DNA of 64,000 nt from Bryobacterales bacterium (GTDB lineage Bacteria > Acidobacteriota > Terriglobia > Bryobacterales > UBA6623): positions 1,053,260-1,117,259 of the forward strand of contig CBDCHL010000003.1 of the NCBI GenBank assembly GCA_965217195.1. The letters run 5' to 3'. Below the pieces are notes generated by a model. That model was not told the origin of the DNA and searched no databases. It was given only the letters and a program-made list of their open reading frames with translations. Shown in pieces: positions 9,846-54,456 of the stretch. Made by a program: the position numbers and the translations under genes. Position 1 is the first letter of the stretch; each line of letters begins with the position of its first letter.

Positions 9846-12488
9846 TCACGCAGCGACCTGGTGGCGCTTCGAGAACCGCATCGTCGCCCCCTCCGCGTCC
9901 ACCTCCACCCGCACCACGTCGCCTTCCCCGAATTCCCCATCGAGAATCTTCAACGCCAGCGGATCCTGAATCAGCCGCTGAATGGCGCGCCGCATCGGCC
10001 TGGCGCCGAATTCCTCCTGGTAGCCGTCGCGCAGCACCAACTCGCGGGCCGAGTCGGCGATGTCGATTTCGATGCCCTTGTCGGCCAGCATCTTGCGCAG
10101 CCGCACCAGCTGCAAACCGAAGATTTCGCGCAGGTGCTCGCGGCCGAGCCTGTTGAACACAATGATGTCGTCGATGCGGTTGAGAAACTCCGGCCGAAAC
10201 GCCCGCCGCAGCTCATCCATCAGTATCCGCCGCATATCGCGGTTCGACTCGCTTTGATCGTGCGTCAACGAGAAACCGATCTTGGCGCTTTGGATGTCGG
10301 TCGAGCCGATGTTCGAGGTCATGATGATGACCGCGTTATTGAAATTCACGGTCCGACCCTTGCCGTCGGTCAGCCGCCCGTCGTCCAGCACCTGAAGCAG
10401 TACGTTGAACACATCCGGGTGCGCTTTTTCGATTTCGTCGAGCAGAACGACCGAATAAGGTTTTCGGCGAACATGCTCGGTCAACTGGCCGCCTTCGTCG
10501 TAACCCACATAGCCGGGAGGCGCGCCGATCATCCGCGAGACAGCGTGCTTTTCCATGTATTCGGACATGTCGATGCGCACCATCGCCTTTTCGTCATCGA
10601 ACAAAAACTCGGCCAGGGCCCGCCCCAATTCGGTTTTGCCGACGCCGGTAGGCCCCAGGAAGACGAACGTCCCGATCGGACGGGACGGATCGCTCAGGCC
10701 GGCGCGGTTGCGTCGCACTGCGTTTGAAACATGCGCCATCGCCTCGTCCTGGCCGATGACTCGGTCGCGGAGGCGTTCTTCCATGTGGACGAGCTTTTGG
10801 ATTTCGCCTTCCAGCATTCGTGTGACCGGGATGCCGGTCCACTTGGCCACGATGCGGGCAATGTCTTCATCGTCCACCTCGCCGCGCAGCAAGCTGGAGT
10901 CGCTCGGCTGTTCTTCGAGCAGACGCGTGGCCTCGGCGAGCTGCTTTTCGAGTTCGACCAGTTCGCCGTAACGGATTTCGGCCGCCCGCTCGAGATCGCC
11001 GCGCCGCCCGGCGTCTTCCTGCTCGGCGCGTAGTTTCTCCTGGCGCTCCTTGAGAGATTGGACCACCGAGATCCTCTTGCGTTCCTTCTGCCAGCGGTCG
11101 CGGAGCTGCGTTGCTTCAGAGCGCAACGTTTCGAGTTCGTCCTCGATCGCACGCAGGCGCTCTTTCGACGATCGGTCAGACTCCTTCTGCAACGCCTTCT
11201 TCTCGATTTCCAACTGCATCACGCGGCGGTCAAGTTGGTCGACCTCAACCGGGACCGAGTCAATTTGCATGCGTTGGGTAGCGCCGGCCTCGTCGATAAG
11301 GTCGATCGCCTTGTCAGGCAGGAAGCGGTCGCTGATATAGCGGTCCGACAACGTGACAGCGGCAACCAGCGCGGAGTCCTTGTAACGCACGCTGTGATGG
11401 ATCTCGTAAGTTTCCTTCAGTCCGCGAAGGATGGCCAGGGCGTCTTCGACGCTCGGCTGATCGACCAGCACGGTCTGGAAGCGTCGCTCGAGTGCAGCGT
11501 CCTTTTCGACGTGCTTGCGATATTCGTTGATTGTCGTGGCGCCGATGCAGCGCATCTGTCCCCGGGCCAGCGCCGGCTTCAACATGTTCGCGGCGTCGAT
11601 CGAACCCTCAGCCGACCCGGCGCCCACAAGGGTGTGCAACTCGTCGATAAAGCAGACGACCTCGCCTTTCGACTCTTCGATTTCCTTGAGGACGGCCTTG
11701 AGGCGGTCTTCGAATTCACCTCGGAATTTCGTGCCCGCCACCATCGAAGCCAGGTCGAGCGCGACCAGGCGCTTGTTCTTCAGGCTTTCGGGGACATCGC
11801 CGGCGATAATGCGCTGGGCGAGGCCCTCGACAATCGCGGTCTTGCCAACCCCGGGTTCGCCGATCAGGACCGGGTTGTTCTTCGTTCTGCGGGAAAGCAC
11901 CTGCATGAGCCGCCGGATCTCTTCGTCGCGTCCGATCACCGGGTCAAGCTTGCTCTGCCGCGCTTGTTCGGTCAGGTCGAGGGAGTAGCGTTCAAGCGCT
12001 TGGTATTTGGCTTCCGGATTCGGGTCGGTGACTCGCTGTGAGCCTCGCACCGAGGCCAGCGCCCGCAGAATCGCTTCATGATTCGCGCCGGCCCGCGCCA
12101 ACAAGTCCGCCGCCGGGTCGTGCTTGAGGCGGCTCACCGCCAGCAGCAAATGCTCGGTCGAAACGAACTCGTCGTTGAACCGCGAGGCTTCTTTCTGCGA
12201 TTGCTCAAATACTTCGTTGAGCGACGGGGAAAGATACACTCCGCCCTGGGCTTTGTCGCCGGAAACTTGCGGAAGCGATCGCAAACCCTCGCGCGCATCC
12301 AACGCAACCTGCCCCGGTTGGGCGTCTAACTTCGCCAAGATCGTGCCGGCGATACCCTCCTCCTGCTCAACCAAAGCAATCAGAAGGTGCAGCGGGAACA
12401 GTTGCTGGTGTCCGCTCTCGGCCGCGAGAGTTTGGGTTTGCTCCACCGCCTCGCGAGCCTTCTGGGTGAATTTGTCAAAACGAATCAT
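9846..12488 (-). CDS. clpB: ATP-dependent chaperone ClpB
   Basis: 880 aa with a Clp N-domain, two AAA+ modules (GEPGVGKT and GPTGVGKT Walker A motifs) and a long coiled-coil middle domain between them. The C-terminal D2-small domain is present. Confidence 0.97.
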
Positions 12489-12586
12489 GAGCTACCTCGC
12501 GTGGACTATTTGTCATGGCTCGCCGCCGTTGCCGGCGAGATCCAGTCGCTGCCCAGGAGAGCAGCCGGCCACTTCTCATCGGAACG

Positions 12587-12614
12587 GCGGGCCGCCGAAA
12601 GCCGGTCGGCCCGC
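12587..12614 (-). terminator. GC-rich hairpin between hsp20 and clpB (possible attenuator or processing site; no U-tract)
   Basis: gcgggccg (12587-12594) pairs with cggcccgc (12607-12614), with extra inner pairing ccg/cgg. It lies 23 nt downstream of the hsp20 stop and no T-run follows on the minus strand. Confidence 0.3.
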
Positions 12615-12636
12615 TCCCGATTTGACCAACGCCGGT

Positions 12637-13074
12637 TTATTGGACGCTGATCTGCCGCATCTTCTTCTGCTTCTCGGGCCGCTTCGGCAGAGTGACCCGC
12701 AGCACGCCTTTGTCGTATTTCGCCTTGATCTTGTCGACGTCCACGCCTTCCGGCAGACCGAAGCTTCGATGGAAGGAACCATACGCCCGCTCTAGGCGGT
12801 GGAAGTTCTTCTCCTTCGATTCCTTTTCGAACTTGCGCTCGGCCTTTAGCGTGAGGACATCTTCTTCGACCTTGACGTCGAGATCCTTTTCAGCTACATC
12901 AGGCAAATCGGCCGTCAGGATAATCTCCTTATCGGTCTCCTCGATGTCTACCGCCGGCGACCACGTGGTCACGCCGTTGGTCTCGGGCCAAGGTGCCGTG
13001 AAAAAGCGATCGAAGACGCGATCGAAGTCGCGCCAAGGAACTAAGCCTTTAGGGTTGTATCGGATCAAGCTCAT
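12637..13074 (-). CDS. Hsp20/alpha-crystallin family small heat-shock protein
   Basis: The alpha-crystallin domain reads PAVDIEETDKEIILTADLPDV...ERAYGSFHRSFGLPEGVD...GVLRVTLPK. I prefer ATG 13072-13074 (MSLIRYNP), which is preceded by a GGAGGA Shine-Dalgarno (complement of 13080-13085). The track start at 13116 adds 14 unsupported residues. Confidence 0.9.
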   Translation of the reverse strand: MSLIRYNPKGLVPWRDFDRVFDRFFTAPWPETNGVTTWSPAVDIEETDKEIILTADLPDVAEKDLDVKVEEDVLTLKAERKFEKESKEKNFHRLERAYGSFHRSFGLPEGVDVDKIKAKYDKGVLRVTLPKRPEKQKKMRQISVQ

Positions 13075-13107
13075 TTGTATCCTCCTTGTCGAGCTGTTTC
13101 TGTAACC

Positions 13108-13136
13108 ATGGTACACGTGGATCTATGATCTGTCAA
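13108..13136 (-). promoter_or_regulatory. Putative sigma70-type promoter for hsp20(-clpB)
   Basis: On the minus strand, TTGACA (complement of 13131-13136) is followed by a 17-nt spacer and TACCAT (complement of 13108-13113), about 35 nt upstream of the hsp20 ATG. It abuts a very AT-rich upstream tract. Confidence 0.35.
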
Positions 13137-13464
13137 GTAAAAAGTATATTATATGATGGTATATCACTAAGATTTTATTATGTAAATAATATCGATACGA
13201 CCTCGAACGCCCTTCGGCGGTCTCGTTTTCTTGGCAAAGAAGAGTGTGATTTTGTCATGTAGTATCAGTAGTTTACAAACTATTTCGGACCCAGATCCGC
13301 CCACAGTCGTCCCTTGAATGCCCCTCAATCCCAGTTCTGAGAGAAAACTCACAGATTGTGGTTCCGCACCCAATTTTTCGCCTTCAAATCTCCTCTGGTC
13401 GCCCCGAGGCCGCTAGAATAGGGATCTTTGACCGGTCCTCGGGACCGAGCGTCAACACCTTGCA

Positions 13465-14166
13465 ATGACCTTCGTCGAGACCCTGCATCGCCTCGAACAG
13501 GAGGTGACCGGTTGTAACCTGTGTCCCCGGCTGCGGGCTCATTGCCGCGAGATCGCCCGAGTCAAGCGCCGGGCCTACAGGGATTGGGACTATTGGGGCC
13601 GTCCGGTCCCTTCGTTCGGAGACCCGCGAGCACGCGTGCTCATCATCGGATTGGCGCCCGGCGCCCACGGAGCTAATCGGACGGGACGCATGTTCACCGG
13701 CGACGGCTCCGGCGATTTTCTCTACGACGTCCTCCACCGCACCGGTTTTGCCTCTCAACCCGAGGCCGTCTCCCGAGACGATGGGTTGCAGCTCAAGGAC
13801 TGCTATATCACGGCCGCGGCCCGTTGCGCGCCTCCCGGCAACAAACCAACCCGAGAGGAGTTCGACGCCTGCCGCCCTTATCTCGAGCGCGAGCTCGCGG
13901 TTATGGAACGCATTCGCATCGTCGTGGTACTCGGTCGCTTGGCTCTCGATGCCTATCTCACGGTGCGGCTTCGTGAAAATTCGATAAAAAAACGTTCCGA
14001 CTACCCCTTCGAGCACGGAAGGGTGTATAATCCAGGCAACAAGCTGCCAAGTCTGATCTGCTGCTACCATCCCAGCCGACAGAACACCCAAACCGGCCGC
14101 CTGACAAAGCCCATGATGCTCCGCGTCTTCCGCCAAGTTCGACGCAGGCTTGCGGGTATGTCGTAA
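13465..14166 (+). CDS. Uracil-DNA glycosylase superfamily protein, family 4/5 (UdgB-like, Fe-S cluster type)
   Basis: GLAPGAHGANRTGRMFTGD (the GLAP-type motif A that I associate with family 5), HPSRQN motif B, and Cys ligands (CNLCPRL ... C ... C). Confidence 0.85.
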   Translation: MTFVETLHRLEQEVTGCNLCPRLRAHCREIARVKRRAYRDWDYWGRPVPSFGDPRARVLIIGLAPGAHGANRTGRMFTGDGSGDFLYDVLHRTGFASQPEAVSRDDGLQLKDCYITAAARCAPPGNKPTREEFDACRPYLERELAVMERIRIVVVLGRLALDAYLTVRLRENSIKKRSDYPFEHGRVYNPGNKLPSLICCYHPSRQNTQTGRLTKPMMLRVFRQVRRRLAGMS

Positions 14167-14295
14167 AAAGTCTCGCGTTTGCGCATTTCTTGGTAACCAA
14201 AGGAAGCGCGAAGCGTCAAAGAATTTTGTGCAACCACCACTGAGTGGGTAACATCTATAGAGTGTCCGGCAGAGGTACCGGACTGGAGAGAAGCC

Positions 14296-14673
14296 ATGAA
14301 AAAGCAAGAACAGGAAAAGGTTCAAAAGCAGTTGCTGCGGAAGCTGGCTGAGCTGCAAGGCTCGACGTCCCGGAAGGACGACTTGATCGCTGAGCGTCTG
14401 AGCGACCCGATGGACCAGATGCAGTCTCGGGCCGACCTCGACCTCGCGGTAACCACGATCAATACCAGCTTCGAGATGGAGCGTGCGGTGGAAACCGCGC
14501 TCAACGTGCTCGAGGCGGGCGAATACGGCATCTGCCGAGACTGCGGAGAGGACATCAATCCTAAGCGCCTTCAGGCGGTTCCGTGGACGACGCTCTGTAT
14601 CCTCTGCCAGGAGATGCACGATCTTGAGCGGCAGTTCGCGGGCGACGATTCCAAGCCGCTGCGAGCCGCCTGA
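14296..14673 (+). CDS. DksA/TraR-family C4 zinc-finger protein
   Basis: An N-terminal coiled-coil region is followed by CRDCGEDINPKRLQAVPWTTLCILCQE (CxxC-N17-CxxC). A GGAGAG Shine-Dalgarno sits 6 nt upstream of ATG 14296. Confidence 0.8.
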   Translation: MKKQEQEKVQKQLLRKLAELQGSTSRKDDLIAERLSDPMDQMQSRADLDLAVTTINTSFEMERAVETALNVLEAGEYGICRDCGEDINPKRLQAVPWTTLCILCQEMHDLERQFAGDDSKPLRAA

Positions 14674-14731
14674 GCCGACGCGACGCCGCGCGGCGTGATG
14701 TCGGCTCCAAAGAACAACATTGCATTGGACG

Positions 14732-14763
14732 AGGGCGCGGGAAACCGCGCCCTTGGTGATTTC
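14732..14763 (+). terminator. Putative intrinsic terminator after the dksA-like gene
   Basis: A 9-bp perfect stem, agggcgcgg (14732-14740) / ccgcgccct (14745-14753), with a GAAA tetraloop is followed by tggtgatttc. Confidence 0.5.
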
Positions 14764-14866
14764 ACGGGCCGGCGGCCCCCGAAAAGCAGCGGCTAGAATG
14801 AAACCAACCGTTGTTTGAGGCTGGGCCTCATCACCTTTAGGGAGCCCCATCGGCGACGCCCATACC

Positions 14867-50407: not shown

Positions 50408-50917
50408 ATGCGAAGAACCACAATACGACCAAAGCGGTTAGGCCTCGTCGTCGTCTTGACGCTGGCGCTCATCGTGGCGTTTTCTGGCCTTTGGCCGGAC
50501 CCGGTTAAAGGCGACCAGATAGTGACCGTCGAGATTCGCAGCGGGTCCATCGGCGTAGGCCCGGCTCAGTTGATGGAGTTCGTCGTGCTCAACCCCTGTG
50601 AAAGCTCGGCTGCTACGGTCCTCATGCAGTTCATCGACGCCGTAACTGGGGAGGTGCATAGAACCTTCGAGGGTGAGATTCAACCGGGAAAAGGTTTCAG
50701 GCGGAAAATATTCGAGGGTGTCGGCAATCCTGCGGAGAGGCGAAATATTCGCGTGACAGTAAAAATAACCTGTGAAGGGAAATTCGCCAAAGGATGCAAT
50801 TTTCTCTCATTATCGCTCGTCGGCGACGATATATTAGAGGTTACCGTTACGAGTAACAGTGACTTTAGTTATTCGGGGAACGCGCCTTTTTCGTGTCGTG
50901 TACCACTGGAACAGTAA
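50408..50917 (+). CDS. Small secreted/anchored protein, no recognisable family
   Basis: AAGGAG Shine-Dalgarno (50392-50397) 10 nt upstream of ATG 50408. It has an Arg-rich n-region plus a hydrophobic segment (RLGLVVVLTLALIVAF). G+C is locally low (23/60 at 50761-50820 by my count). The track start at 50195 is unsupported. Confidence 0.5.
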   Translation: MRRTTIRPKRLGLVVVLTLALIVAFSGLWPDPVKGDQIVTVEIRSGSIGVGPAQLMEFVVLNPCESSAATVLMQFIDAVTGEVHRTFEGEIQPGKGFRRKIFEGVGNPAERRNIRVTVKITCEGKFAKGCNFLSLSLVGDDILEVTVTSNSDFSYSGNAPFSCRVPLEQ

Positions 50918-51033
50918 ACAGAGTCGTCGGCACATATACCTGTGCATAACCAGGTCCCTATCCACCGGACCCAGCGTTGCACGTACACGCCAAGCCGGGC
51001 GGAGCGCAAGTTCTGCTCCACCGGCTCTTGCTC

Positions 51034-51220
51034 GTGGAGATCGTGGAGATCGGGGGGGGAGATCGGGGGAGATCGGGGGAGATCGGGGGAGATCGGGGGA
51101 GATCGGTGACAGGCAGCTAACTATGCTAAGAGATCGGCAAGAGATCGGTCAGAGATCGGTGACAGAGATCGGGACAGAGAATCGGTAAGAGAATCGGTGA
51201 CAGGCAGCTAACTATGCTAA
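51034..51220. repeat. Left tandem array, GAGATCGG core on the + strand (about 11 GATC-containing units plus 2 degenerate GAGAATCGG units)
   Basis: Units: gtggagatc x2 (51034-51051), a 13-mer, four perfect decamers gggggagatc (51065-51104), then longer units. The block ggtgacaggcagctaactatgctaa occurs twice, 91 bp apart (51105-51129, 51196-51220). Confidence 0.9.
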
Positions 51221-51237
51221 TCTGACCTCACCACCAC

Positions 51238-51930
51238 ATGTCACGCCAAGCCCGGGTGGTGGCGGAGGGCGTTCCGCACCACATCACCCAACGGGGCAAC
51301 AACCGCCAGGACGTCTTCCTGCTCGACGAAGACCGGCGGTTCTACATCGAAGCTTTACGCGCGCAATCCGAGCAGCACGGCCTGGCCATCTTGGGCTACT
51401 GCCTGATGACGAACCACGTCCATTTGGTCGCCATACCGAAGCACGCGACGTCGCTCGCCCGAGCGGTCGGCCGCGCCCATTGGCGCTACTCAGTTCGCTT
51501 CAACAAACAATACGGCCGAAACGGTCATTTGTGGCAGAACCGGCTTTATTCCTGTCCCTTAGGCCCCACACACCTTGTCACGGCGTTGGCCTATGTCGAC
51601 CTGAATCCGGTCCGCGCGTGCATAGTCGGCGAAGGACCCGAGTACCCTTGGTCGAGCGCCTCGGCGCATTGCGGAGACGCCATGAGCGACCGCCTGATCG
51701 ACCCCGGGGAATGGCACCGGATGGGCTTGGCGAGCGATTGGGAACAACGTTTGCGAGCCGAGTCGACGGGCGAGGGCGCCGCCGAAGTGCGGCAAGCGAC
51801 CTATTCCGGGCTGCCGTTGGGCGACGAGCAATTCATCGAACAGATGGAAGCGCGACAGGGCAGGCGCTTGCGGCCGCTCCCTCCAGGGCCCGCGCCGAAG
51901 GTGCTGAAATCCGCCGCCGGAGGCATGTGA
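51238..51930 (+). CDS. Y1 HUH transposase, REP-associated tyrosine transposase (RAYT) / IS200-like family
   Basis: 230 aa with PHHITQRGNNRQDVF, an HUH motif in MTNHVHLVA, and catalytic-Tyr context ALAYVDLNPVRA followed by YPWSS. This is the pattern of COG1943-type transposases. Confidence 0.85.
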   Translation: MSRQARVVAEGVPHHITQRGNNRQDVFLLDEDRRFYIEALRAQSEQHGLAILGYCLMTNHVHLVAIPKHATSLARAVGRAHWRYSVRFNKQYGRNGHLWQNRLYSCPLGPTHLVTALAYVDLNPVRACIVGEGPEYPWSSASAHCGDAMSDRLIDPGEWHRMGLASDWEQRLRAESTGEGAAEVRQATYSGLPLGDEQFIEQMEARQGRRLRPLPPGPAPKVLKSAAGGM

Positions 51931-52043
51931 CCTGGGTTACGTGGCTGTCACCGATCTCTGCTCCCTCCAGGGCCCGCGCCGAAGGTGCTGAAATCCGCCG
52001 CCGGAGGCATGTGACCTGGGTTACGTGGCTGTCACCGATCTCT
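51876..52043 (+). repeat. Perfect 84-bp tandem duplication (2 copies) spanning the 3' end of the transposase CDS and the right inverted repeat
   Basis: 51876-51959 is identical base-for-base to 51960-52043 by my reading. Copy 1 contains the last 55 nt of the CDS, including TGA 51928-51930. Confidence 0.9.
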
Positions 52044-52234
52044 CCGCCGATCTCTCCCGATCTCTCTCACCGATCTCTCCCGATCTCTCACCGATCTCCC
52101 CTCACCGATCTCCCCTCACCGATCTCCCCTCACCGATCTCCCCCACCGATCTCCCCACCGATCTCCCGTCCCCCGATCTCCCGTCCCGATCTCCCACCGA
52201 TCTCCGCCGATCTCCGGACTTTCTCCGATCTCGG
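52020..52234. repeat. Right tandem array, CCGATCTC core on the + strand (reverse complement of the left-array core; about 16 units here plus one at 51951)
   Basis: Periods are 10-14 nt. Three perfect 14-mers caccgatctcccct sit at 52089-52130. The last unit ccgatctcgg is at 52225-52234, 41 nt before the HEPN gene stop. Confidence 0.9.
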
Positions 52235-52274
52235 TCAGCAGGTCTCTGCGAGCCCCGCGCTGGGGAACTCTGGC

Positions 52275-52856
52275 TCACTCCATGAGCCTAAACCAATCTC
52301 GGACGGCAAGCCGAAGGCGCATCACCTCATCCTCCGCCAAGGGACTGCAGTGGGCAATTGGGGCTCTCAGGGCATTGAGGCTTGTCATAACCTTGTCAAA
52401 GGCTTTGCTGCTGTTGAATAGGTCGAAGCTAGCCCAATTCGCTCGCACTATCTCCCCGAGTTGGCCAAAGGTCGTGTAGTCGATTTCCTCCGTGGAGCGC
52501 GGGGTCAGACCCGCATCCAGCTCGCCCTGCATCGTTTTCTGGACTTTGTCCTGAACCGCATCGGGAACCTGCGTATCCCACCAAGTCGAACCGTGGTCTT
52601 CGTCAAGTCGAGCTGCGATGAGAGTCCGGATCCACGTTTCAAGACAGTAGAACAGCTCGTAGTGCATGCTCATTGTCGCGGCTTCCGCTCGCACTGACTG
52701 GGGAAACTGCGGGTAATAGGCTTCGTCGCGGTCAGTGGACATCTCGCCAGAGTCCCGCTCCAGGTTAATGTTGAACCGCTTCTCGACCGCATCGAGATCG
52801 CGCTCGGCCATGCGGTTGGATATTTCGAAGAGCTTAATCTGATCAGCAGCAGTCAT
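52275..52856 (-). CDS. Swt1-type HEPN-domain protein (putative RNase toxin/effector)
   Basis: 193 aa. The C-terminal two-thirds fits my recollection of the Swt1-like HEPN pattern (LETWIRTLIAARL, STWWD, IDYTTFGQLGEIV, NWASF, LNALRAPIAH) with an Rx4H motif (RAPIAH). ATG 52854-52856 overlaps the upstream stop. Confidence 0.65.
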   Translation of the reverse strand: MTAADQIKLFEISNRMAERDLDAVEKRFNINLERDSGEMSTDRDEAYYPQFPQSVRAEAATMSMHYELFYCLETWIRTLIAARLDEDHGSTWWDTQVPDAVQDKVQKTMQGELDAGLTPRSTEEIDYTTFGQLGEIVRANWASFDLFNSSKAFDKVMTSLNALRAPIAHCSPLAEDEVMRLRLAVRDWFRLME

Positions 52857-53479
52857 TTTCGTAGGAGGTTTTCGCGTAAGCTTTGAAAAATTGCGTTGAA
52901 GACCGCCCCATCGTCGGTCTTGGGCAGCACGAGGTTAATCGTATATGACAGATTCACCTTCATGTCCTGATCCGAAAGAATTGGGGGCTTGTCCATGACA
53001 GCGCCGCGCTCGGGTGCGGCCACCTTTTTGGCGGGCTTCGCTGCCTCGAAATCGGCGAACCTCTTCAATGCCTCGAAGGTGCTACAAATGCGTTTTACGG
53101 TGACGTTATCGCTCTTGAGACCGGTAATCTGCATGACCAGGCCCTTTAGATCTGCCCTGGCGAGCTTGTGAACGTATTCGTTACGCGCGTAGAGTTCCGG
53201 ATAGGCCGCCCTCATGCCTTCGGCAACCGCGTGCTTAGACTGTTGGGGGTTTCGGAAGCGACTGTGGCGGTCCGTTGGCTTACCGTCGCTGCTTAGCAAG
53301 CCGAGACGTTTGGCGACGGGAATGAACGCCAAAGCGCTCGCTGTCTTGAATCCGAGAACTGTCTTGAGAAAGTCCTGCGTGAAACGTTCGGGTTCCTGAG
53401 CTTCCTTCACTTTGTTGAGGATGTGTTCCAACATCCCGTACGAGGCCATATAGAGCGGAGTCTCGGATTGTCTTGCCAT
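52853..53479 (-). CDS. DUF5343-like protein (no catalytic motif seen; candidate partner/antitoxin/sensor of the HEPN protein)
   Basis: 208 aa. The N-terminus (PLYMASYGMLEHILNKVKEAQEPERFTQDFLKTVLGFKTASALAFIPVAKRLGLLSSDGKPTD) resembles the DUF5343 family as I recall it. The C-terminal tail reads VNLSYTINLVLPKTDDGAVFNAIFQSLRENL. ATG 53477-53479. Confidence 0.5.
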   Translation of the reverse strand: MARQSETPLYMASYGMLEHILNKVKEAQEPERFTQDFLKTVLGFKTASALAFIPVAKRLGLLSSDGKPTDRHSRFRNPQQSKHAVAEGMRAAYPELYARNEYVHKLARADLKGLVMQITGLKSDNVTVKRICSTFEALKRFADFEAAKPAKKVAAPERGAVMDKPPILSDQDMKVNLSYTINLVLPKTDDGAVFNAIFQSLRENLLRK

Positions 53480-53499
53480 TTGATGTTTATTGTAGTCCT

Positions 53500-53537
53500 C
53501 TCACCAAATTATGGCTTCCTGTGAGGGTTTTGGTGAG
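53500..53537. promoter_or_regulatory. 9-bp perfect inverted repeat just upstream of the DUF5343-HEPN operon (candidate operator)
   Basis: ctcaccaaa (53500-53508) and tttggtgag (53529-53537) are separated by 20 nt and lie 21-58 nt upstream of the ATG at 53479. A TACAAT hexamer on the minus strand (complement of 53489-53494) lies between it and the start codon. Confidence 0.4.
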
Positions 53538-53580
53538 TTCGGGCCCACACAAGACAGTCCTGTCGGGAGATCGGGCTCCG

Positions 53581-53623
53581 GTTTCCCGGTGTTTCCCGCC
53601 GTTTTCCCGGGTCCGGTTTCCCG
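53581..53623. repeat. Four direct GTTTCCCG-core repeats (three in 10-nt phase)
   Basis: gtttcccg at 53581, 53591 and 53616, and gttttcccg at 53601. An inverted degenerate copy cggaaac is at 53648-53654. They are immediately preceded by a solitary gggagatcggg (53565-53575) carrying the core of the transposase-flanking arrays. Confidence 0.7.
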
Positions 53624-53668
53624 GTTCGCATTAGGGTGTTGTTGAGGCGGAAACGTTGCGTGGGTTGC

Positions 53669-54313
53669 TCAGGAGTCTAGGCCGTCGTCCCGCGTAATCA
53701 AGTACACGGCAATCTCAGCCCGCAGGTTGGGCAGCAGCCGCACCGGCCGTCCTCGCAACAAAAAGTAAGACCGCTCGATCTTCAGCCCAAGCTTCCGCAA
53801 GGTCTCCTCGAAGTCGATGATCGTCACGAAGTGAATATTCGGCGAATCGTACCACTCGTAGGGCAGGTGGCGCGTCTTGGGGGCGCGGCCCGAAACCATC
53901 AGAGAAAGCGGAACCGACCACCGCGCGAAATTCGGAAAGGCGACGATCATCCGCTTGGCGACCCGGCCCATCTCTTCGAGAACATCGCGCGGACGAAGAG
54001 TCTCCTGCATCGTCTGGCTCAGGATCACGTAGTCGAAACACTGATCCGGGTAGTCGGCCAGCCCCTGATCGATATCACCTTGAAAGACGGAGAGCCCGCG
54101 GGCCACGCACTTGCGGACTTCGTCGGGCGAGATCTCGACGCCGCGCGCCTGCACGTTCTTGCGCTCGACCAGCCAATCGAGCAACTCGCCTTCGCCGCAA
54201 CCCAGGTCAAGGACTTTCGAGCCTTCCTCGACAAGTTCGCCGATGATTTCGTAGTCCCGGCGTCCGAGAACGTCGGGGACAACGCGGCTCAATGTTGCTT
54301 CAAGCGTGGCCAT
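53669..54313 (-). CDS. metW: Methionine biosynthesis protein MetW (SAM-methyltransferase fold)
   Basis: VLDLGCGEGELL, GVEISPDEV, VILSQTMQE and PNFARW...GRAPKT...LPYEWYDSPNIHF are highly characteristic of MetW. ATG 54311-54313 is preferred over TTG 54340. Confidence 0.88.
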   Translation of the reverse strand: MATLEATLSRVVPDVLGRRDYEIIGELVEEGSKVLDLGCGEGELLDWLVERKNVQARGVEISPDEVRKCVARGLSVFQGDIDQGLADYPDQCFDYVILSQTMQETLRPRDVLEEMGRVAKRMIVAFPNFARWSVPLSLMVSGRAPKTRHLPYEWYDSPNIHFVTIIDFEETLRKLGLKIERSYFLLRGRPVRLLPNLRAEIAVYLITRDDGLDS

Positions 54314-54456
54314 GGGAAACCTTACGGGCCATTCTCTCAATTATAGTTGCGTGATTGCGGCCGACGAGCGGACACAGCTCGTTAGGGGGTGTCGGCGGGC
54401 CGGCGCGACGATCGGGCAAAACAATTTAAAGCCCTGCTTTGCTACGATTCCGACAA

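Follow-up and report, generated by a model that had tools for sequence, protein, structure and literature searches.

A DUF5343-HEPN gene pair in a Bryobacterales genome is a further copy of the phage defense candidate PDC-M34

Introduction

Genes that are repeatedly embedded within BREX, DISARM or type I restriction-modification (RM) loci have been catalogued, by guilt-by-embedding, as "phage defence candidates" (PDC; Payne et al., 2024, bioRxiv 10.1101/2024.01.29.577857). One of them, PDC-M34, appears in that preprint as CAS_00130, the cassette FAM_01148>>FAM_01657, in supplementary Table S8, the main text being silent on it. Here we describe a locus of identical composition in a Bryobacterales bacterium (Acidobacteriota). 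It lies in a stretch of 64,000 nucleotides, called the window below, which spans positions 1,053,260 to 1,117,259 of the forward strand of contig CBDCHL010000003.1 (assembly GCA_965217195.1). The locus consists of a gene for a DUF5343 protein (gene A) followed by a gene for a Swt1-type HEPN protein (gene B). PDC-M34 itself is a computational candidate only.

The HEPN-MNT system HepT-MntA of Shewanella (SO_3166/SO_3165), a type VII toxin-antitoxin (TA) system, shares with the window locus the layout of a two-gene operon, with the partner first and the HEPN gene second. Its HEPN protein, which carries an Rx4-6H motif, is the ribonuclease (RNase) toxin, and the HEPN protein of the window is likewise predicted to be an RNase. 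The partners are different: that of the window is a DUF5343 protein with a helical model and not an alpha/beta nucleotidyltransferase fold. A first-pass annotation of the window, made from the sequence alone, had already set the partner apart from MNT nucleotidyltransferases, and indeed DUF5343 was the sole match of gene A in Pfam at E<=1, with no nucleotidyltransferase profile among the results. Neutralization of the toxin by AMPylation is therefore not expected. The HEPN domain is also of another kind, since the Swt1 type belongs to the Swt1/Abi2 clade and not to the MNT-associated clade (PMC3710099).

AbiD and AbiF (Abi_2), which are linked to phage defense and found embedded in RM operons, belong to the same HEPN clade as gene B, in which they form the sister group (PMC3710099). 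They are single genes predicted to co-occur with the non-coding RNA RF03085 (PMC12165695), whereas the HEPN type of the window is always paired with a protein partner. In Pfam at E<=1, gene B matched HEPN_Swt1 only, with no match to Abi_2, and a search of Rfam at E<=1 over positions 50800-53800 gave no match and no AbiF-like non-coding RNA.

RnlA-RnlB and LsoA-LsoB offer a functional analogy for the mechanism proposed below, namely a non-enzymatic partner that holds a HEPN RNase inactive. As described in PMC8266594, the HEPN RNase toxin is held by a directly binding antitoxin and released on infection, and the systems act against T4. No sequence relationship to the window pair was detected, and the window partner is larger, highly conserved and endowed with a separate N-terminal domain. 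The order of the rnlAB genes is reversed relative to that of DUF5343-HEPN.

Two single-gene systems are of interest as well. PD-T4-6, a Ser/Thr kinase represented by models in PADLOC-DB, has been validated experimentally as an anti-phage system. There is no kinase at the window locus; the link to this catalogued defense family is made by one protein elsewhere (P0308, discussed below), which carries the DUF5343 domain. HEC-08, a DUF3644 HEPN protein with zinc-ribbon domains, is a HEPN candidate from the same embedding approach as PDC-M34, from which it differs in its HEPN family and in being a single gene. It has been validated, and mutation of the histidine in its Rx4-6H motif abolished defense (10.1101/2024.01.29.577857).

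The pair as a copy of PDC-M34

The gene A protein matches Pfam DUF5343 (PF17278) with 154.6 bits against a cut-off of 27 (E 2.6e-45), residues 10-148 covering positions 2-139 of the 140 in the model. The gene B protein matches HEPN_Swt1 (PF18731) over positions 2-113 of the 115-position model, and its score of 42.3 bits (E 1.1e-10) exceeds the cut-off of 27.5. Both families had been named in the first-pass annotation, and both names pass the curated thresholds. NCBIfam and PHROGs assigned neither protein to a family.

The PADLOC-DB v2.0 models, of 2023, match both proteins at full length. PDC-M34A (PDLC04589) scores 172.7 bits with gene A (E 3e-51), residues 9-205 aligning with positions 6-207 of the 208 in the model, and PDC-M34B (PDLC04592) matches gene B with 117.4 bits (E 1.4e-34; residues 2-190 on 2-188 of 192). 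The two genes adjoin, are co-oriented and stand in the order A>>B, as the composition of PDC-M34 demands. The window locus is a complete further copy of this catalogued candidate, DUF5343 then Swt1-type HEPN. The pair had first been taken for a combination without a named defense or TA counterpart; given the PADLOC models and the Table S8 entry, that view has to be abandoned. The pair is already named and detectable by a standard tool (PADLOC), and is not an undescribed module.

The observations of the first description were sound: on re-reading the sequence, its coordinates, the ATGA overlap of the two genes, the quoted protein motifs and the RAPIAH dyad were all present (Table 1). At the junction, CGA AAA TGA CTG, the TGA stop codon of gene A (52855-52853) and the ATG of gene B (52856-52854) overlap by 4 nt. 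In public gene calls the DUF5343 gene begins at M11, giving a protein of 198 aa (P0121). The sequence comparison favors the 208-aa start, because homologues align with a conserved YPPFM-type N-terminus.

Linkage and spread of the two genes

A word-index search gave 3814 homologues of gene B (E<=1e-3) and 859 of gene A. The best 120 of the 3814 are about 190-196 aa long and about 58-65% identical, and every one of them carries PF18731. With a profile of gene A, 2235 representative clusters at 50% identity were found (E<=1e-3). The relatives, by source name, are from Opitutaceae, Deltaproteobacteria, Anaerolineales, Thiobacillus, Verrucomicrobiota and Sneathiella, the taxonomic breadth being based on metagenome loci and source names. 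The pair is also carried by six contigs of IMG/VR.

The two genes were found to be strictly linked. We collected 95 loci, 90 of which could be assessed downstream of the DUF5343 gene. In all 90 the next gene, on the same strand, is the HEPN gene, a linkage of 100% that applies to this subfamily and not to all PF17278 proteins, since the metagenome and viral loci were retrieved by peptide patterns taken mostly from the subfamily's C-terminal motif. Loci retrieved from the HEPN side gave the same picture, DUF5343 being upstream in 8 of 8 that were assessable. Over the 90 loci the spacing of the two genes lies between -11 and +8 nt; an ATGA overlap is present in 30 and a 1-nt spacer in 35. The pairwise identities of the two proteins co-vary (Pearson 0.73, 67 non-redundant pairs), as expected if both were inherited together. 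The adjacency and tight coupling noticed at one locus hold across many lineages, and some of these loci are inside or beside defense loci.

The HEPN protein

HEPN RNases usually build their active site across a dimer. The gene B protein retains both elements that define active HEPN RNases, the Rx4H motif, located where the penultimate helix ends, and an Ex3R element, and is predicted from its sequence to be a metal-independent RNase effector or toxin. In an alignment of 42 homologues, every sequence has R164 and at least 90% have H169. The surrounding N161, P166, I167, A168 and C170 are likewise invariant (LNxLRxPIAHC). The codons of the dyad lie at 52367-52365 (R164) and 52352-52350 (H169), within LNALRAPIAH. 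Invariant in the same alignment are E73 and R77, which correspond to Ex3[KR], the second conserved feature of the HEPN active site (PMC3710099). The AlphaFold2 model is all-helical, with a predicted local distance difference test score (pLDDT) of 88.7. In the model, the Rx4H motif closes helix 150-168 and opens the loop that precedes the last helix (175-192), which is the location described for solved HEPN domains (PMC3710099). Searches of the PDB with sequence profiles from the alignments of both proteins returned nothing meaningful.

The conservation of the dyad among orthologues, which the first reading had left to be checked, is borne out by the locus survey: RxxxxH is kept in 75 of the 79 full-length loci. 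The other four (L002-L004 and L060; protein P0110) are copies of one lineage with RGPIAR, where the catalytic histidine is replaced by arginine and the remaining protein and its partner are intact. The effector may be inactivated or mechanistically altered in this lineage.

The DUF5343 protein

The AlphaFold2 model of the gene A protein (overall pLDDT 80.1), together with the homologue alignment, divides the protein into three parts. The N-terminal domain is modeled with pLDDT of about 88-94 at residues 21-140. It is helical (helices 14-26, 35-41 and 47-59) with one small beta-hairpin at about residues 61-69, after the third helix (strand residues 62 and 68). As modeled, its topology seems to resemble that of a winged helix; Foldseek comparison of the gene A model with the PDB and BFVD gave no match at E<=0.001. 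The polar residues D36, K57, D65, R76, N77 and E101 are invariant among homologues. A ligand- or nucleic-acid-binding site in this domain is plausible, and an enzymatic role is possible.

The linker that follows is predicted to be disordered, pLDDT being below 50 at residues 152-177. Its columns are poorly conserved (0.17-0.32 vs. 0.5-0.85 elsewhere) and its length varies across homologues. No other stretch of the protein is as conserved as the C-terminal peptide, residues 176-208, which scores 0.75-0.86 per column and has many invariant columns. Its consensus, LSYTINLVLPKTDDxAVFNAIFKSLRENLLRK, lies outside the Pfam DUF5343 model. We infer that this peptide binds or tethers the HEPN protein.

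The N-domain is found in other company as well. In P0308 (457 aa; L098:6001-7374, GCA_028289345.1, JANQQL010000047.1) it forms a cis fusion with a Ser/Thr kinase, and the kinase part matches PADLOC models of PD-T4-6 (E 7.6e-43). The gene is 2.6 kb from a DUF5343-HEPN pair, with an IS110 transposase and a TIR-domain protein nearby. P0330 (371 aa) has, after the N-domain, a coiled coil and then two hydrophobic, putatively membrane-spanning segments; this protein may be a membrane-effector variant. Both the kinase fusion and P0330 are without the conserved C-terminal peptide, which agrees with the idea of the peptide as an adaptor, required for an effector on another chain and dispensable in a fusion. 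The partner domain appears to be a reusable regulatory module. A DUF5343-like N-domain throughout the PD-T4-6-like kinase family was considered and rejected: the fusion was seen once, and the corresponding N-domains of related kinases are unrelated to it (hhalign probability 0.2).

These properties bring up the possibility that the partner is a sensor and activator and not an antitoxin. The HEPN protein would then be inactive and non-toxic by itself, and the DUF5343 protein would sense a phage cue through its N-domain and activate or recruit the RNase. The partner is conserved to a similar extent as the effector (mean pairwise identity 0.50 for DUF5343 vs. 0.54 for HEPN) and is neither small nor fast-evolving. 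Its N-domain occupies, in the PD-T4-6-type kinase and the membrane protein, the N-terminal position typical of sensors, where related kinases bear other domains. However, the kinase fusion is a single case, and the partner-first order, the stop/start overlap and the one-to-one coupling are the classical layout of antitoxin and toxin. We consider activation by the partner unlikely.

Genomic context

Neighboring genes were scanned at 39 loci, two per side (130 proteins). The majority have housekeeping functions. A minority of the neighbors are of defense type: Drt5, RhuM/PDC-S05, type I, II and III methyltransferases, mad2 and Mrr-type nucleases. Mobility is represented by four integrases and one TrwC relaxase. 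At one locus (L053) the pair directly adjoins a type I methyltransferase and RhuM/PDC-S05. At another (L097; ENA ERZ25068966, 6001-7406 and flanks) it lies between two large genes that resemble DrmMI (the DISARM methyltransferase) and type IIG RM genes; this locus independently shows the kind of embedding by which PDC-M34 was defined. The DUF5343 protein there has an N-terminal extension and is 271 aa long. A form with a still longer extension (357 aa; L096) is encoded next to an IS481 transposase and a gene for an RHS toxin.

In the window, the pair is lower in G+C than its surroundings, as the first reading had it: 55.3% vs. a mean of 60.8% (standard deviation 2.0%) for segments of the same size, 1.8% of which are equally low. 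The G+C content at third codon positions is 0.67-0.68 for the pair and 0.71-0.78 for neighboring genes. We propose that the cassette is here a horizontally acquired insert of lower G+C between metW and a transposase gene. The same local arrangement is present in near-identical contigs of ENA metagenome assemblies.

Upstream of gene A is an inverted repeat, CTCACCAAA / TTTGGTGAG, with perfect arms of 9 bp, a spacer of 20 nt and a distance of 21 nt to the ATG of gene A. When the 150-nt upstream region was shuffled 30 times, no repeat of this length arose. The repeat had been read as a sign of an autoregulated operon. Its presence is confirmed, but comparison with other loci showed it to be particular to this one: a conserved operator was rejected because the best upstream inverted repeats of the family average 6.6 nt, vs. 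6.0 nt after shuffling (75 loci). A scan for sigma-70 promoters upstream of gene A found no site that satisfied the criteria. By reading, the repeat arms fall on a -35 candidate (TCACCA), which is weak, and on the base following a candidate -10 (CATAAT). That the repeat serves as an operator or 5' stem-loop, at this locus only, is speculative.

The context bears on whether the pair is a selfish type II TA addiction cassette that has no dedicated anti-phage role, its positions in defense loci reflecting shared mobile hotspots. Such a cassette would be maintained and would spread by killing cells that lose it. The canonical TA layout would suit such a cassette, as would the patchy occurrence across phyla at 50-65% identity (Opitutaceae, Deltaproteobacteria, Anaerolineales, Thiobacillus, Sneathiella), the G+C content below that of the host in the window, the usual location alone among housekeeping genes, and the inverted repeat, which could be an operator at this locus. 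Against it stand the copies embedded in the DrmMI/type IIG-like locus or adjoining type I RM genes, the fusion of the N-domain with a kinase that matches PD-T4-6 models, and the lack of conservation of operator-like upstream repeats. Addiction modules are common on plasmids, and PLSDB yielded no copy of the cassette. Pure addiction is improbable in our estimation.

The pair could also work outside conflict systems, in housekeeping or stress RNA processing, as a HEPN RNase with an RNA- or DNA-binding cofactor. High sequence conservation and the housekeeping surroundings at most loci would agree with such a function. The distribution, however, is patchy and not lineage-wide, the G+C content is atypical, and integrases, insertion sequence (IS) elements and defense genes adjoin several loci. 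Moreover, the catalytic histidine is substituted in one lineage, and the C-terminal sequence of two proteins (P0301 and P0316) looks frameshifted by reading. We regard a housekeeping function as very improbable.

Proposed mechanism

We favor a conflict system over a housekeeping one; the data are compatible with inhibition or activation by the partner, and with defense or addiction. Our preferred reading, to which we give a probability of about 0.6, is that the pair is a TA-like abortive-infection module whose effector is the HEPN RNase. The layout is that of type II TA systems, two small coupled genes with the partner upstream of the HEPN gene. The HEPN protein would be a metal-independent endoribonuclease and the toxic effector. 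The DUF5343 protein, made in step with it by translational coupling, would silence it in uninfected cells, probably by docking of the near-invariant C-terminal peptide onto the HEPN protein, and the helical N-domain would serve in sensing or in binding nucleic acid. On phage infection, or under another insult, the inhibition would be lifted when the partner is lost, displaced or conformationally changed. RNA cleavage would then lead to growth arrest of the infected cell: abortive infection on a TA-like architecture.

Several observations weigh against this abortive-infection reading. The partner is large and 50-60% identical across phyla, unlike typical labile antitoxins. The residue that follows the conserved arginine of the HEPN protein is small (G, A or S) across loci, whereas it is polar in most active HEPN families (PMC3710099). 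The comparison of structures called for at the outset yielded models for both proteins and no significant fold match by Foldseek: for gene B against the PDB there was none at E<=0.001, the HEPN structure 1jog ranking 36th with an E of 5.7, so that the HEPN fold rests on the sequence profile and the motif geometry. Most copies, including that in the window, are alone amid housekeeping genes. No relatives were found in INPHARED phages or PLSDB plasmids (both searched by tblastn with the DUF5343 protein) or in PHROGs. Finally, our literature search found no publication that names PDC-M34, DUF5343, PF17278 or PF18731, and no experimental study.

A broader proposal can be made from the abortive-infection reading and the reuse of the N-domain. 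DUF5343 might be an unrecognized portable sensor or regulator of immunity, acting on HEPN in trans via the tether peptide and on a kinase or membrane module in cis. PDC-M34 would then be a functional abortive-infection system in which control of the HEPN protein is non-enzymatic, unlike the AMPylation of the MNT systems. We offer this proposal tentatively, the odds being somewhat against it.

Features of the locus

The features of the locus are collected in Table 1.

Table 1. Positions of the DUF5343-HEPN cassette, its parts and its flanks in the window.
Feature	Position	Strand	Basis
Gene A, DUF5343 protein, 208 aa (PADLOC PDC-M34A)	52853..53479	-	Pfam PF17278 and PADLOC PDLC04589
Gene B, Swt1-type HEPN protein, 193 aa (PADLOC PDC-M34B)	52275..52856	-	Pfam PF18731 and PADLOC PDLC04592
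Gene A, N-terminal DUF5343 domain, residues 10-148	53036..53452	-	Pfam match
Gene A, variable low-complexity linker, about residues 149-175	52955..53035	-	pLDDT and column conservation
Gene A, C-terminal peptide, residues 176-208, KVNLSYTINLVLPKTDDGAVFNAIFQSLRENLLRK	52856..52954	-	Column conservation
Gene B, Rx4H dyad, R164-A-P-I-A-H169, inside LNxLRxPIAHC	52350..52367	-	Alignment and locus survey
Gene B, E73-x3-R77 (LETWIR), Ex3[KR] element	52626..52640	-	Alignment
ATGA stop/start overlap, junction of genes A and B	52853..52856	-	Sequence read
9-bp perfect inverted repeat 5' of gene A, arms 53500-53508 and 53529-53537	53500..53537	no strand	Sequence and shuffles
Y1 transposase, RAYT-like	51238..51930	+	Pfam Y1_Tnp
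metW, flank of the DUF5343-HEPN cassette	53669..54340		

The Y1 transposase next to the pair, noticed already in the first reading, is confirmed by Pfam (Y1_Tnp, 48.3 bits against a cut-off of 23). Its score with the NCBIfam model for the REP-associated tyrosine transposase (RAYT) is 62.7, below the cut-off of 80, and its translation has the HUH motif NHVHLV and the tyrosine motif YVDLNP. The transposase as a component of the system was rejected: it is not in the 25 neighbor families listed from the scan and was seen in this strain group only. Its proximity is incidental.

On either side of the RAYT gene are tandem arrays, inverted relative to each other and built of 10-14-nt units with GAGATCGG, in plus orientation upstream (51032-51203) and in minus orientation downstream (52032-52216). 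The 64-kb window has 17 copies of GGAGATCGG, 1.4 being expected by chance, and every one is in this region, including the lone copy described below. The gene and its arrays look like a REPtron-type arrangement with short tandem units in place of the classical palindromic REPs. The 24-nt GTGACAGGCAGCTAACTATGCTAA occurs twice upstream of the gene, from 51107 and from 51198, and an exact tandem duplication of 84 bp (51876-52043) spans its 3' end. A near-identical metagenome contig (L005) has one copy of the 84-bp unit, so the junction differs between close strains. Between metW and the DUF5343 gene there is a lone copy of GAGATCGG at 53566-53574, just upstream of the latter, and beside it a GTTTCCCGGC-like tandem array of 2.9 copies (53581-53610).

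The sole other stretch of the window with a G+C content as low as that of the cassette (0.54-0.57) is at 12000-14300. It contains the 3' part of a gene for a ClpB-type chaperone (9846-12488), an Hsp20 gene (12637-13116) and part of an open reading frame of 488 aa (13384-14850) that is without a Pfam match. This stretch looks ordinary.

Significance

The window locus matters little alone, being one more copy of a cassette that PADLOC detects. The family is of more interest than the instance: PDC-M34 is a widespread and strongly conserved HEPN module, and the cassette occurs in thousands of environmental genomes. Its HEPN effector is of the Abi2/Swt1 clade, which includes AbiD/F, and in a study of structures and phylogeny AbiD/F came nearest to the HEPN domains of ancestral Cas13 (PMC12165695). 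The three-part anatomy of the partner, and the reuse of its N-domain on a defense-type kinase and on a membrane module, provide starting points for testing PDC-M34.

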